Shown here: piece by piece, positions 5,973-51,200 of the stretch | Numbering within the stretch: the first letter of the stretch is position 1 | How the letters are laid out: each line of letters starts with the position of its first letter | Assembly: GCA_965213685.1 (NCBI GenBank) | Contig: CBDBZY010000041.1 | Coordinates: 288,001 to 352,000 of the forward strand | Direction: 5' to 3' | DNA: 64,000 nt | DNA from: a bacterium | GTDB lineage: Bacteria > UBA8248 | Notes under the pieces: generated by a model | What the model was told of the DNA's origin: nothing | The model's database searches: none | Seen by the model: the letters and a program-made list of their open reading frames with translations, nothing else | Translations under genes and position numbers: made by a program

Positions 5973-6445
5973 CTGTGTGTGTGTGTGTGTGTGTGTGTGT
6001 GTGTGTGTGTGTGTGTGTGTGTGTGTGTGTGTGTGTGAGAGAGAGAGAGAGAGAGAGAGAGAGAGAGAGAGAGAGAGAGAGAGAGAGAGAGGAAGTTTAT
6101 GAATAAGTGACATGTACAAACATCACTCCAAGTCCAACAAACTAGCTGACGACCTTGTGTCTATGTTTGACGACCGGTGTTTTAGTGGAAGAGAATCAAT
6201 CAGCCCCAGTGGAAGGGGGAAGGGAAGTTGCAGTAGACAACACAACCACATGTTGTCAGTACAAAAGAACAACTTATCATAAACCCCTTCCCCTTGCATT
6301 CCTGAGGCCAATCAATGTATACACTGCACAGGTTACTCTGAAAGGTGAACACAAGCACTACCATAGGCTACTGATCGTGAAGAACTAAAGCCAGCCATCT
6401 GTGTTGCATGTGTGTCTTGTAATACCCAAACTCCCGGTCACCCCA

Positions 6446-6489
6446 GTGCAGCTGATGAGGCCTGGTATTGGCTGAAATGCATCCTGCAC
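6446..6489 (+). ncRNA. Minimal type-I hammerhead ribozyme (repeat family D)
   Basis: GTGCAG-CTGATGA-GGCC tggtatt GGCT-GAAA-TGCA-TC-CTGCAC: 6-bp stem I, intact core, stem II, palindromic stem III, AUC site. Confidence 0.85.
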
Positions 6490-7396
6490 ATTGGGCGACT
6501 GTTTAACATCTAGGCCTGAGGGCCGTTCACAGCCTGGGGAGTTGTGGTTATTGATTTATTCATGAGTGTGGCAGAACAGGTCACGGGCCATATATACAGC
6601 ACCGTGAACATCTGATCAATACTAAACGCAATGTATGTACATAAAAAGGGAAAACAAAGCAAAACAACTATTACTACAGTGAAACCTCTCCTCTAACCAG
6701 GACACTCTTGGGACGAGAAAGAATATTATGTCCGTATTAGAGGAGTGTCCTCATTTCAGAAATTGAAATGCCCAAAAAATACCTGCATATTATGTGTACA
6801 GGGAACCAAACAGAACTGGTAGCTACTGCAGGATGCTACTGGTGTTTGGGATAAGGAAGCAACCATATGGCGTATCCCATATACTCAAGACTGTCCACAC
6901 TGCACCTATGGGATATCTCAAGTGCACTATGTGAAAGGTAGGCAGGTCACCTTACCCAATGCTGGCACTAACATTTGTCCCCTACAAATTGCCAACAGTG
7001 GGAGACACGCATGAGTCGCTGCACACACACTCGGACCCGTGAACTGTTACATAACATAGGCAACAAGACATGACAGATGAATCACATACTCTGTGTATGT
7101 GTGTGTGTGTGTGTATGTATGTATACACATGTACATGTATGTATGTATGCGGGTAGGCAGACACACACAGTACAGGACAAAGCAGTATGTGTTGTCTGAG
7201 AGGAAACAGCCTTGTTCCCAGGCTTCACAGCCTCATGCATAATTATTACAACCATGTGACCTTTGACCCACAGCTCGTGACCTCAAAAATCATGCAATCA
7301 TTATGATGGTCACATGCAGGGGGAGGAGCCTGGGTACGAGTGCATTTGTTTCAATTAGTTATGGCTGTGAAAGAGAGCAGTTTTGAATGTTTGCTA

Positions 7397-7568
7397 TACA
7401 TGATGAAAAGGCTTGGGAATATTTTTAGAGAACTGTGAAAAACCGGCAGCCACCCGGGATTGAACCGAGGGCCTCTGACTTTAGCTGTCAGTGCTCTACC
7501 ACCTGAGCTATGGCCACCGGGTGACAGCCAGCCTTCACAATTCTCAATATCACTCTGTATGTGCCGTC
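7397..7568 (-). mobile_element. tRNA-derived repeat family A (73-nt cloverleaf at 7445-7517)
   Basis: A box TAGCTCAGGTGG, B box GGTTCAATCC, all four stems pair. Conserved flanks on both sides; ends ...TCATGTA. Confidence 0.85.
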
Positions 7569-7964
7569 TGCACAATTAGTGTACGTAAGTGTGTGTGTGT
7601 GGGGGGGGGGGGGGGGGTTGTACATGTGTACAATAATTATAGGATCTTGATTGGGTGTGTGTGTGCTAGTGATTCCCAACACCAAGGGGTGAGAAGGGAG
7701 GAGACACGTCCCTCCAATGAAACTGGACATTCTGAGTATAGATCTCCAGTGATAATTCAGGGGGAGGTTTCTGAGGTCTCCCGAAACTAGACAGAAAAGT
7801 TGTGGTAAGCTAGCTACACTTTCTAGGCACAGAATTAAGACTAAGAGCACATTAAACAATGACCTACACTACTGTTTTGTCGGTACTTAGGCTCAAAAGC
7901 ATTAGTGATTCACTTCATGCATGTGTCGTGGCACAAGCTCATGATGCAACAATACATAGAGCAT

Positions 7965-47453: not shown

Positions 47454-47871
47454 CTGAGGGGTGGGGGAGGGAGGGAAGGAGTGAGGGAGAGAGGGAGGGA
47501 GAGAGGGAGGGAGAGAGAGAGATTTATCTATCTATTATCGTTCTATGTATTTGCTTACGGTGTATATATATCTTATATTTGTGGCTTGTTTACTAGTCTT
47601 GTATTGTTTACTTTTAGTTACAATAATATTGGTATGATACTGTACCAACTGTGCGGTGTTTTTGTAGGACACTTGCTAAACAGGGTACACTGCTAGAGCA
47701 CCCTCTTGCATTGCCTTGTACACTTGTATATACAAACCATCAAGTGGTTTCTCTTTCCGAGAGAGAAATACATGCAATGACATGTGTATAGCACACCAGC
47801 TAAAAAGAGGTAGAAGAAAGGTGAAACCCATGTACATGAACAAATAAGGTGGGCCAGAGCAAGCTAGGCAA

Positions 47872-47916
47872 ACGGCGGACAGCTGTTTTGAGCTGGTTGG
47901 CTCTCATCAGCGCCGT
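47872..47916 (-). ncRNA. Minimal type-I hammerhead of a second sequence family (G12>A)
   Basis: ACGGCG-CTGATGA-GAGC caacca GCTC-AAAA-CAGCTG-TC-CGCCGT. All stems perfect, one core substitution. Confidence 0.8.
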
Positions 47917-48254
47917 GTACATGTATGTACAAGCTGCTCTGGTCGCACCGGTTTTATGTACCCCAAGGTGAGCCTACTGATTGTGGTTTCACATGTACAT
48001 GTAAACGAACCAAAACCATACCTACAAACACACTGAGCACAAGACACTTGGATGCCCAGTCTGGAGAACTGGAGCGGTGGGAACATTTACATGTTTTAAC
48101 CCCCATTCCCAGCTCTCAAGGTTGGTCATGTGGACTGTCTCTTGACTGTTATTATTTTTATATGTTGTACTTGAAAATTTATATTTTTCTAAGCTGTAGA
48201 AACTGTGAAGATGGTATATTTTTCTAAGCCGCTGAGGTTGAGATTGCTATATTT

Positions 48255-51200
48255 TTCTAAGCTGTAGAAGCTGTGAATATGTTCTATTTTTCTAAGCCGT
48301 TGAGGTTGAGATTGCCACATTTGTCTAAGCTATTGAAGCTGTTTTCTATTTTTCTAAACCACTGAGGCTGAGAGACTATATTTCTAAGCTGGCGAAGCTG
48401 TTGTTTGTGTGTGCAATATGTTGCCTGTGTGTGTAATATGTTTGCTTCTTTCTTTCTCCTCTTCCCTTTCCTCTTCTTTCTTTCTATTTATAGTGCTTAT
48501 ATAAGTGAAAACAGCTCATACCAATGGTACACGTACGTAGTGGATTGATCCCGTGCCTGAGAGCCCCTGCTTTCCACAGCCCACAGCCCAGGCGCAGCCC
48601 ACTCAGTCTTAGCCTTTGCCTTGGGCCCAATGCCATTGGCTTTCATACATGCATGCAGCCAGTGGCAATGTGGGCAGCATAATGCACTGTTTAAATGCAT
48701 GCACTTAGTAGATTATGGGGGATATTGGTATAAAGGGTACTAAAATCAAAGCTGTCTAGGGAACAGGCTTGGTGGATGGTATGTAAACTGTTGATTACTT
48801 TCGTGGAATTACTTATGAAAGAGGAATTGCACTTTGTGGTACACTGAACAGTCCTCAGGCCTAGGTGGGAAACAGTCGCCCGATGTGCAGGACGCGTTTC
48901 AACAAATACCAGGCCTCATCAGCTGCGCTGGGGTGACCGGGAGTGTGGGTATCACACGTCATGTGCAACACAGACAACTGGCCTCATAGTTAGGCCTTCA
49001 CAGTCACACAGCTTAGCCTGTGGCCCGTATGCCAGGCCTCATCAGCTGCGCTGGGGTGACTGGGGTATGTGTGCATGTGTCTGTCCAGCTCAAGGTCACC
49101 ACATGCGTATGGCCTCCCCTACTCCACTCCACTCTAGCTAGGTACATATATATGAATATGTTATAAACTGGACAGTTAATTTGTGAAGTGATCTGTCCAC
49201 TCTGTGGATACTGTACTGTGTATGTTAGCAAACTGGACAGCTGAACTCACATGCCCTCCTCATGAACCCTGTACCGTCCTCTAATATTCTGGCTATGTAC
49301 AGTACCTGTATGTGTACCCAGCTCTGGCTGCATGTACACGTTCACCACTGGTCCAGCAGTCACAGTGACATGGGTTGAGTCCCACCTGAGGTGGCTCACT
49401 TCTTTTGAATTGAATGGCTGAGAACCAGAGTGGGCTATCCCAACAAAAAGTGTGGGGAATGAGCTGAAATGCTTAAAAATGCATTAAAAATCACAGGACC
49501 CCTTTGAAGTAATGTTTTCATTTTTTAAAAACCTGAAGTGCAGAATATTCTGAAATGCATTTTGCAAAGACTCCCAGTTCTAGGGGGGGTTAAAGTCAAG
49601 ATTGTGGCTTAGACCACTTTGGTTCTCAGCCCTTCAATTGTCTCAGGATCAGGTGCAGCTGAATTGCCTTGCCTTTGACACACTGTACATGTACACTGTA
49701 CATACGTATATCCACATGTACGTACCAGTCGATCCCTAGCGGGATTCTGACGGCACATACAGAGTGATATTGAGAATTGTGAGGGCTGGCTGTCACCCGG
49801 TGGCCATAGCTCAGGTGGTAGAGCACTGACAGCTAAAGTCAGAGGCCTCAGTTCAATCCCGGGTGGCTGACGGTTTTTCACAGTTCTCTAAAAATATTTT
49901 CCTCATGTACATATGTCCATGTGATAGTGCATCTGTCTATGTACACTCAAGCAGTCTCATATTGCAGACAGCATGTAGGGAGACAACCAAGTGAAAGATC
50001 ACCTATACACATGCAGTATGCATGTGCATGCTAAGTTAGAGTTTCCCCTGTTTATCAGGTAGTTTAGAGATACTTGCCTTGCTTTGTATTGTATTCTTTC
50101 GTTCCCTAATTCGACCCACAACCACTGAGCTGCCTTGGTAGCTTAGTGGACAGAGCACTGGTCTAGAGAAACAGTGACGTGGGTTCGAATCCCACCTGGG
50201 GCAGCTCACTTTTTCTTTGAAAAGAAGAGAAAGTGAGCCGTCTCAGGTGGTGTTGTTGTGTTGCCTTGCTTTGTTTATTGTGTCTCCATTATTTAGTCAT
50301 GTACGGGAGTAGATCAAGAACCACAGCCCCCTGGGCCACAAACAGCCCTCAGGCCTGCATGTACATGTACATGTACACATAGGAATGAAACAGTCACCCA
50401 ATAGCGGGTACCCATTGCCTAAGTGGCTGGGTGTACATGTGCTGTATGTTATGCACACACTAGGAATCTACGCATTCTATAGAGCATTGTGCATATTCTA
50501 CAGATTGCGCACCATTCAATAGACTGGCCCACAATCTAAGAATCCCTACATTGTAAACTGCTTTCCATAGAACACCTAGATTCCTAGAAAATGCATGTAT
50601 ATACATGCACATTGTGTATATAGACATACAGGTATATGAGACCTACAGCACTAGGCCGCAAAAGGCCCTTGGGCTTTAACTCAATACAGCAAACCATTAC
50701 TTGTGGAGGTAGCCATCAGTATGATGGGCAGTGAATGGCAGATCCCTGCCACATGTACGGTACTCCATTACTGCCGGAGGCTGCAGTCTGCCCGCCATGA
50801 ATGGGCCGTGTTGCAGTCGTACAGATGTAGCTAATGAAGTAATTATGTATGTGTGAGTGCCTTCTGGAGTGTTCCAGGGCCGTGTGTGTGTGTGTGTGTG
50901 TGTGTGTGTGTGTGTGTGTGTGTGTGTGTGTGTGTGTGTGTGTGTGTGTGTGTGTGTGTGTGTGTGTGTGTGTGTGTGTGTGTGTGTGTGTGTGTGTGTG
51001 TGTGAGTGTGTGTGTGTGTGTTTGGTGTACTTGATCACACCAGCAATATGTACACACACACACACACACACACACACACACACACACACACACACACACA
51101 CCACCTCTATCCTTGCTTCCTGTGTCCCTATGTGCCTATCAATCCACTGGCAACATCTGCAATCACCTAATCAAACTATTCATTGTGGATGCGTGTGTAA

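Follow-up and report, generated by a model that had tools for sequence, protein, structure and literature searches.

Dispersed repeats in a bacterial genome record are probably relics of a non-coding, hammerhead-bearing retroelement of an animal

Introduction

Hammerheads in dispersed and tandem repeats of animals, and their suspected dependence on Penelope-like elements, have already been described, and so the case set out here adds a member to them and not a principle. The canonical metazoan type-I hammerhead combines 6 bp in helix I and 4 bp in helix II with 1-2 bp in helix III, whose loop of 2-4 nt is palindromic, and reportedly needs a second copy with which to make an active dimer (Cervera and de la Pena 2014, PMC4209133; 2020, PMC7229834), whereas the 'minimal' hammerhead of Penelope-like elements has a long helix II and 4-5 bp in helix I but lacks helix III (PMC4209133). 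The amphibian satellite-2/axolotl hammerheads have a very short helix III, and efficient cleavage is reported for them only as dimers (PMC7229834), while canonical hammerheads are put at thousands in S. mansoni (Ferbeyre 1998, as cited in PMC4209133). Penelope-like elements have been proposed as mobilisers of non-coding hammerhead elements (PMC7761336; bioRxiv 10.64898/2026.07.22.740005), and their own insertions are described as having a microsatellite bias, partial tandems and an extra 'tail' of 30-40 bp (PMC8557442, PMC11167929). The stretch considered here, called the window, is 64,000 nucleotides long (positions 288001-352000 of contig 41, CBDBZY010000041.1, in assembly GCA_965213685.1), and the subject is a dispersed repeat within it that carries a hammerhead motif of type I. 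Positions are those of the window unless a contig is named.

It is probable that these repeats are relics of a non-autonomous, non-coding retroelement family that bore a hammerhead, and that the genome in which they lie is that of an animal, probably a sponge, and not that of a bacterium.

Animal DNA in a bacterial assembly

The assembly is filed as a prokaryote, with 7.97 Mb in 71 contigs. In 49 of these the GC content is 0.61-0.69 and the observed/expected ratio of CpG is 1.07-1.23, contig 37 being an exception (GC 0.33, CpG 0.81), whereas the other 22, contig 41 included, amount to 4.9 Mb with a GC content of 0.42-0.54 and a CpG ratio of 0.18-0.47. The CpG-poor contigs are eukaryotic and repeat-rich and hold 107 matches to the reverse transcriptase domain RVT_1, many with long open frames; the window itself is full of microsatellites and of short interspersed elements (SINEs) derived from tRNA. 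Other genomes of the bacterial family (n=41) have sizes of 2.0-4.6 Mb, and the hammerhead repeat is found in none of the 41, which together with the eukaryote-like contigs assigns the repeat to the animal host. The 4.9 Mb are thus animal DNA binned with a GC-rich bacterium, and the window is non-bacterial. The marker-based contamination value for the assembly (3.68%) does not reveal the animal DNA, and a practical consequence is that some 4.9 Mb of a 'bacterial' genome record are host DNA.

A dispersed repeat with a type-I hammerhead

A motif pattern made of the hammerhead core and helix II, allowing up to three mismatches, matches six places in the window (6452-6477, 16851-16876 and 21486-21511 on the plus strand; 10622-10647, 43898-43923 and 48897-48922 on the minus strand) and none in 100 dinucleotide shuffles of it. 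A blastn search with 6301-6700 as query returned 17 further pieces in the window, and a profile hidden Markov model (HMM) built from 12 long copies gave 17 matches there and 101 across the eukaryotic contigs; neither method matched the repeat in the bacterial contigs of the assembly. Once matches that share flanks are merged (these include groups of 4-5 copies on contig 18 and four on contig 64, and the window pair at 16.7 and 48.9 kb) the 101 become 77 independent loci. The window has about 11 independent insertions, roughly ten times the mean density of the eukaryotic contigs, and so the first-pass annotation, made from the letters of the window, was right to see about ten copies or fragments of a dispersed hammerhead repeat.

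The hammerhead lies on the sense strand, about 80 nt upstream of the 3' end. In the best copies it reads, in order, GCGCAG, CTGATGA, GGCC with a 7-nt loop and GGCC again, GAAA, CGCG, TC and CTGCGC. Helix I thus has 6 bp (GCGCAG/CTGCGC), followed by an internal loop and then an extension of 7-9 bp (GTCACCC/GGGTGAC); helix II has 4 bp with its 7-nt loop; and helix III is a single A-U pair closing a 4-nt palindrome. Both palindromes reported earlier for loop III, CGCG and TGCA, are present among the copies, and CGCG is the ancestral state, often decayed to TGCA. The topology is that of type I, with the core CUGANGA...GAAA...UH in order, three helices, and helix I open towards the 5' and 3' ends. 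As judged from its predicted architecture, the hammerhead of the repeat is of the canonical metazoan type-I form and not of the Penelope minimal form.

A strict descriptor (a core without mismatch, no fewer than 3 bp in helix II and 5 bp in helix I, A...U closing 2-8 nt and a non-G at the cleavage position) gave 15 matches in the eukaryotic contigs, 13 of them in the repeat family, none in the bacterial contigs and three in reversed or complemented controls of equal size. When the 22 proposed pairs are scored across 25 sequences, 90% of cells are paired, as compared to 27-39% when the partners are slid. In the same sequences six pairs have changed on both sides, and the covariation score of 0.161 (shuffled mean 0.138) is reached in three of 500 shuffles. 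RNAalifold recovers both parts of helix I unaided and pairs the core differently, which is how energy models treat hammerheads. Single copies fold with z values of −3.3 to −3.7. Read from these copies, the ancestral or master sequence carried a hammerhead motif of type I that was complete and whose loop III was palindromic.

Copies in the window and their decay

The copies and fragments of the repeat in the window are as follows.

1416-1536, minus strand: 5'-truncated copy, profile positions 74-190
6378-6564, plus strand: repeat copy, profile positions 2-190, with the one hammerhead in the window to satisfy the strict descriptor (6446-6489)
10548-10669, minus strand: 5'-truncated copy, core at 10622-10647 with two mismatches including AAAA for GAAA
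15203-15261, plus strand: fragment of the 3' tail that follows (CATGTA)n, profile positions 132-190
16704-16927, plus strand: copy 16759-16927, shortened at its 3' side, together with an upstream 41-nt piece; hammerhead 16845-16888
20649-20741, plus strand: 5'-truncated copy that begins within loop II, right after a (CATGTA)n tract
21320-21599, plus strand: longest window copy, 280 bp, followed by (TG)n; hammerhead 21480-21523
31309-31612, minus strand: one copy interrupted in hammerhead loop II by a 148-bp insert (31398-31545)
31922-32706, minus strand: one copy interrupted in loop II by an insert of about 600 bp (32040-32640) with terminal inverted repeats, like a miniature inverted-repeat transposable element (MITE)
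33659-33747, minus strand: 3' tail fragment, profile positions 129-191, after a CATGTA repeat
43809-44007, minus strand: copy in the CATGTA-type tail of a tRNA-derived SINE (tRNA-like part 44064-44138); hammerhead 43886-43929
48845-49069, minus strand: duplicate of the 16.7-kb locus in the other arm of an inverted duplication, 97% identity including flanks
57199-57238, minus strand: fragment of about 40 nt with the conserved 3' terminus only, then CATGTA repeats

Five hammerheads had been singled out as the best, and the motif does lie at each of these places, with 43886-43929 and 48885-48928 being on the minus strand. Of the window copies, that at 6446-6489 alone is intact. There helix I is GTGCAG/CTGCAC, CTGATGA occupies 6452-6458, helix II is GGCC/GGCT, GAAA lies at 6474-6477 and loop III is TGCA, and the cut is predicted between C6483 and C6484. 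The hammerhead at 21480-21523 has one mismatch in helix I and a non-palindromic loop III (CGTG); that at 16845-16888, like its duplicate at 48.9 kb, has a weakened helix II (GGCC/GGTT); and that at 43886-43929 has AAAA in place of the required GAAA of the core. The G of GAAA is the general base of the hammerhead, and so the copies with AAAA (those at 43.9 kb and 10.6 kb) should be inactive. An intact hammerhead copy outside the window lies at 34121-34164 of contig 61.

The copies at 16.8 kb and 48.9 kb, taken before as separate, stem from a single insertion that a large inverted duplication has doubled. Its arms (12815-17487 on the plus strand and 52957-48255 on the minus strand) are about 4.7 kb long, 92-97% identical and some 31 kb apart, and both carry copies of the hammerhead repeat, tRNA-SINEs and microsatellites; the tail fragment at 15203-15261 has its duplicate at 50304-50403 on the minus strand. 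At the 16.7-kb locus the 41-nt piece (16704-16744) repeats the 5' half of the hammerhead just upstream of the copy 16759-16927 and so makes a partial tandem, and it is joined to an upstream part of the element at a common GATGAG in what looks like a template switch. Three independent breaks fall in the same few bases of loop II (CCTGG/TATTGG), namely the MITE-like insert, the unrelated 148-bp insert and the junction at 16744, and these bases may be a hot spot for breakage.

Divergence of the copies from the majority sequence averages 13.1% and is at least 4.2%, and most differences among them are changes of CpG to TG or CA, that of CGCG to TGCA included. The motif is spanned by 40 independent copies. 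In 23 of them the core is mutated or an indel is present, and in 17 the core is exact; both helices are kept (helix I 6/6, helix II 4/4) in six of the 17, one of which is the window copy at 6446-6489. The mean majority fraction over the 13 columns of the hammerhead core is 0.92. Going by these changes most copies are dead, and almost all of those in the window are predicted to be inactive.

Element anatomy and insertion sites

The copies have a common 3' end, ...GTTGTGGTTCTCGATTTATTCATG, and in the profile their ends pile up at positions 188-191 while their starts spread over the whole of it. The structured 3' end reported earlier is present in both its parts, the GGCCG-UUCG-CGGCC hairpin and the ...GATTTATTCATG(TA) terminus. 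The length of about 200 bp first given for the repeat is that of a truncated 3' part; the window maximum is 280 bp, three copies elsewhere have about 515 bp, and so the full element is at least about 515 bp, with most copies 5'-truncated to 190 bp or less. All three lie on contig 64, and their 5' sides stop at one boundary some 515 bp from the 3' end, upstream of which their DNA is unrelated. ARAGORN finds no tRNA-like part in two long copies (7SL and 5S heads were not searched for separately), the open frames of a long copy, up to 122 aa, have no Pfam match, and its GC content is 0.443. It was right to call the family non-autonomous; its members are non-coding copies of a retroelement, fixed at the 3' end and truncated to a varying degree at the 5' end.

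A run of (CATGTA)n of at least 8 nt occurs within 28 nt of the junction in 23 of 61 cases on the 3' side and in 25 of 84 on the 5' side, as compared to a background rate of 540 in 19998 random windows (2.7%). Several copies sit in the CATGTA-type tails of tRNA-SINEs. Because the targets are microsatellites, target-site duplications are unreadable; the defined 3' end with frequent 5' truncation is the signature of target-primed reverse transcription. A pile-up of 5' ends at the predicted cleavage site, which would be a trace of cutting in vivo, was considered and rejected, as segmental duplicates account for the piles seen at profile positions 74 and 104.

Relatives outside the assembly

External scans of metagenome contigs gave one locus (L037) and of genome contigs another (L038, the same as L039), and viral contigs gave no match to the repeat. 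L038, at 3300-3965, is the last 660 bp or so of a 43,965-bp contig in a gammaproteobacterial metagenome-assembled genome and holds a related repeat with a microsatellite. Its neighbours are ordinary bacterial genes, read from the sequence as rsmH-, mraZ-, Nudix- and nuoN-like, and this eukaryote-like end is most simply an assembly chimera; a real transfer from host to symbiont is unlikely.

Compared with four copies of the present genome, the two relatives have an identity of 85-92% in the hammerhead block and 70-87% in the last 30 nt, as against 38-72% upstream and 37-51% in the spacer. Compared with each other they agree at 60 of 65 positions in the hammerhead and 24 of 30 in the terminus, against 27 of 64 upstream and 14 of 34 in the spacer. 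L037 has an intact ACGCGT and, in the extension of helix I, a compensatory change of a C-G pair to U-A, and in the same extension L038 has a compensatory flip of C-G to G-C. The UUCG-capped hairpin is absent or shortened in both. The comparison, suggestive rather than conclusive with two relatives only, is the sole pointer to the hammerhead and the 3' terminus as the parts that the element would need, and as a pair conserved between lineages they are a concrete target for the study of element recognition.

Penelope-like elements in the same genome

The eukaryotic contigs contain fragments of open reading frames (ORFs) with a GIY-YIG domain, two of which score 25.5 and 26.2 bits where the cut-off is 22.6. 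At two of the GIY-YIG ORFs there is a sequence like that of a reverse transcriptase (RT) just upstream in the same orientation, which Pfam RVT_1 does not score, and the nearest protein-atlas neighbours of the ORFs combine HTH_animal, RVT_1 and GIY-YIG. In four of seven regions downstream of such ORFs a hammerhead lies 130-400 nt past the ORF. A strict scan for the Penelope type matched the eukaryotic contigs at nine places and neither the bacterial contigs nor the controls at any, and the matches have a helix II of 5-8 bp, a helix I of 4-6 bp and a dinucleotide in place of helix III. The Penelope-like remnants and minimal hammerheads, which include an inverted pair on contig 41, lie at these contig positions.

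Contig 18, 31864-32822
Contig 41, 142107-142152
Contig 41, 164647-165954
Contig 41, 213748-213787
Contig 41, 543473-544143
Contig 51, 425814-425857
Contig 53, 11069-11110
Contig 64, 305623-305664
Contig 64, 1230865-1231490

Both classes of hammerhead therefore coexist in one host genome, and this presence of minimal and canonical forms side by side is the co-occurrence that underlies the hypothesis of parasitism. The two kinds of element also have a layout in common, with the hammerhead 50-80 nt before the 3' end and an end at ...CATG(T)A, and two Penelope-like copies abut CATGTA repeats. The linkage of the repeat to a Penelope RT/GIY-YIG ORF that the first-pass annotation had envisaged is not seen, the repeat being absent within 3-5 kb of all five GIY-YIG loci looked at, and the seven regions downstream of GIY-YIG ORFs have no similarity to it (best blastn E 0.076). 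Nor does the earlier label of a 'minimal' hammerhead from a Penelope pseudo-LTR (LTR, long terminal repeat) fit, because the real Penelope hammerheads of this genome differ in architecture and their flanks share no sequence with the repeat.

Explanations for the repeat

In the explanation preferred here, that of a non-autonomous retroelement in an animal genome, target-primed reverse transcription would copy the RNA of the element, from the 3' terminus on, into nicks in microsatellites. The enzymes would likeliest be supplied by a Penelope-like element, a machinery that is preferred because of the shared position of the hammerhead 50-80 nt before the 3' end and because it has been proposed in the literature. 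In intact RNAs the hammerhead would cut after (G/A)UC and, since helix III is so short, two hammerheads may join by way of the palindromic loop and work as a dimer, whose cleavage would trim the RNA of the element out of longer or multimeric transcripts.

Several results weigh against this explanation. The apparent covariation is largely at CpG sites, where decay to TG or CA can restore pairs by chance, and TGCA palindromes are seen eight times against about seven expected under independent decay of CpG, and so the TGCA palindrome is not counted as selected covariation. The Rfam hammerhead check suggested earlier gave nothing at the gathering score; the best matches were to Hammerhead_HH9 at 17.6, 21.4 and 19.4 bits against 52 (E 0.11-0.9), with no Rfam hammerhead match even below threshold in 21350-21700, and scans of the loci by E value brought up many chance microRNA matches on microsatellites. 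The 517-nt long copy folds with a z of −0.66, 24 of 100 shuffles folding as well, and so is not unusually structured. With duplicates removed, no heap of 5' truncation points is left at the predicted cut, a sequence link of the repeat to any RT-bearing element is not found in the 4.9 Mb, and the outside relatives are two only. The majority fraction within the genome is 0.876 in the hammerhead, 0.863 upstream, 0.850 in the spacer and 0.904 in the terminus, and so conservation of core and stems above the flanks, by which the ribozyme was to be judged, is barely seen among the in-genome copies and is seen in the two outside relatives, where the hammerhead is the part best kept. Near-equal conservation of this kind is what would come of neutral decay in dead copies, and so selection is not in evidence on the copies themselves; it says nothing about the master copy.

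The preferred explanation can be narrowed, tentatively and with doubt, to a sponge-native 'solo retrozyme', which would be a parasite of Penelope-like elements copied from linear RNA into (CATGTA)n and would keep only the hammerhead and a 3' terminus of about 28 nt between lineages. If that were true, the partnership of hammerhead and Penelope would reach back to the base of the animals, and it would point to a natural minimal cassette recognised by Penelope-type reverse transcriptases.

It is unlikely, though less so than the other rivals, that each copy is a solo monomer belonging to a true non-LTR retrozyme whose tandem arrays elsewhere in the host genome are transcribed, cut at successive hammerheads, circularised and copied back to DNA. 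The hammerhead architecture is as reported for metazoan retrozymes (PMC4209133, PMC7229834), solo monomers are counted within such families (bioRxiv 10.64898/2026.07.22.740005), the locus 16704-16927 is a partial tandem, and only 4.9 Mb of the host genome can be searched. A tandem on contig 16 (523158-524773, minus strand) has 2.2 units of about 700 bp each at 91% identity, with two intact hammerheads, both passing the strict descriptor, 685 nt apart, and if transcribed it could release an RNA of 685 nt. However, what that tandem duplicates is unique flanking DNA and not a repeat family, and it is a local duplication around one old insertion. Among the 101 matches there is no tandem array of the family, and so the first-pass classing of the repeat as a retrozyme-type element lacks the defining arrays in the 4.9 Mb; the long copy is not highly self-paired; and the one fixed 3' end with graded 5' truncation indicates a linear template.

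It is quite improbable that the repeat is an ordinary SINE-like element moved by a long interspersed element (LINE) through an RNA tailed with (CATGTA)n, with the hammerhead a passenger or a fossil without present role. The tRNA-derived SINEs of the same genome also end in ...TCATGTACAT, and sharing this short end and the microsatellite with the hammerhead repeat they hint at a shared mobiliser; RVT_1 matches with long open frames are there to provide one, and within the genome the hammerhead is kept about as well as its flanks. Set against these, CATGTACATG is found within 2.5 kb downstream of none of the 15 long RT ORFs examined, the conserved 3' terminus occurs outside the family at three places only, which are neither LINE ends nor repeat families, and in the outside relatives it is the hammerhead block that is conserved best. 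A test for a SINE head found none like a tRNA, the Rfam tRNA matches of the window not overlapping the repeat. Two candidates were rejected on the way: a LINE partner suggested by a terminus-only locus, where the RT fragment 3.4 kb upstream is unrelated to that locus, and other families sharing the terminus, the matches being mostly microsatellite and the upstream part occurring at two duplicate loci only.

The leading reading of the first-pass annotation, that an autonomous Penelope-like element left the copies as its 5'-truncated ends, or pseudo-LTRs, now looks very unlikely. Such elements occur in the same genome, they too put a hammerhead a short way before the 3' end, some of them stopping at CATGTA repeats, and the published microsatellite bias, partial tandems and 'tail' of 30-40 bp (PMC8557442) match what is seen, down to the extra piece of 36-41 nt beside the 16.7-kb copy. 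But the hammerheads that accompany Penelope ORFs are of the other type with dissimilar flanks, none of the five GIY-YIG loci has the repeat near it, and the three longest copies halt at one 5' boundary about 515 bp from the end, reaching no coding sequence.

That the motif is a chance resemblance within a repeat that was never a ribozyme is hardly credible, for while no Rfam model reaches its gathering score, all core nucleotides and three helices are in register, 13 family matches pass the strict descriptor against three in the controls of equal size, pairing holds in 90% of helix cells and in about 30% once the partners are slid, and the block is conserved in divergent relatives.

Host of the window DNA and neighbouring features

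The host is probably a sponge, an assignment that follows from a single protein-atlas lead given by the kinase-Kelch gene of the window. This is an intronless open frame of 728 codons at 60376-62562 on the plus strand, a protein kinase fused to Kelch repeats, and the nearest atlas clusters, with scores of 0.97-0.99, are commonest in Porifera; its family is very large, with 246 matches at 31-46% identity on long eukaryote-like metagenome contigs. For elements of the present kind Porifera go unmentioned as hosts in the literature texts searched, whose supplementary species tables may list sponges. The repeats had also been placed inside an essential gene, and here one exon stands, at 54130-54420 on the minus strand, of a homologue of CTR9 of the Paf1 complex (residues 791-861, E about 1e-19) with microsatellites on either side, while a second exon candidate, 47316-47456 on the minus strand, has no match among solved structures.

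Nine Rfam tRNA matches and ten ARAGORN calls with odd anticodons (CTA, for example) fall in the window, and the heads of tRNA-derived SINEs, at 30-68 bits in Rfam tRNA and called by ARAGORN, are these.

7445-7517, tRNA-derived SINE head
15362-15433, tRNA-derived SINE head
18094-18325, tRNA-derived SINE head
27547-27624, tRNA-derived SINE head
44064-44138, tRNA-derived SINE head
50132-50203, tRNA-derived SINE head
54912-54984, tRNA-derived SINE head
58926-58998, tRNA-derived SINE head

Comparison with known systems

The metazoan non-LTR retrozymes are one such system: like them the repeat is non-coding with a GC content below 50% (0.44; PMC7229834, PMC7761336), has 6 bp in helix I, 4 bp in helix II and a helix III that is weak, its small loop being palindromic (PMC7229834), and co-occurs with Penelope-like elements in the same genome. 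In contrast to retrozymes, which are made of head-to-tail units of 150-450 bp that give circular RNAs, the repeat is dispersed, single and 5'-truncated with no array in the 4.9 Mb, and its hammerhead is placed about 80 nt before a fixed 3' end.

Minimal hammerheads in pseudo-LTRs that belong to Penelope-like elements are described in PMC4209133 and are reportedly the subject of Lunse et al. 2017. With these the repeat has in common the type-I topology, the position shortly before the 3' end of a retroelement and insertion at microsatellites, as well as a dimer implied by a palindrome at the position of helix III; they differ from it in a longer helix II, a shorter helix I and the absence of helix III.

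The satellite-2/axolotl hammerheads bear on how the ribozyme may have worked, since by analogy the same need for a dimer would be expected of the one-pair helix III and 4-nt palindrome of the repeat. Those are vertebrate tandem satellites of up to some 120,000 copies, whereas the repeat is dispersed, at 77 loci in 4.9 Mb of a probable sponge. Sm-alpha of Schistosoma is a SINE-like hammerhead repeat with a tRNA-like polymerase III promoter region. Compared by description only and not by sequence, the present repeat is like Sm-alpha in being a dispersed, short and non-coding retroelement with a canonical type-I hammerhead, and unlike it in that its long copies have no tRNA-like part.

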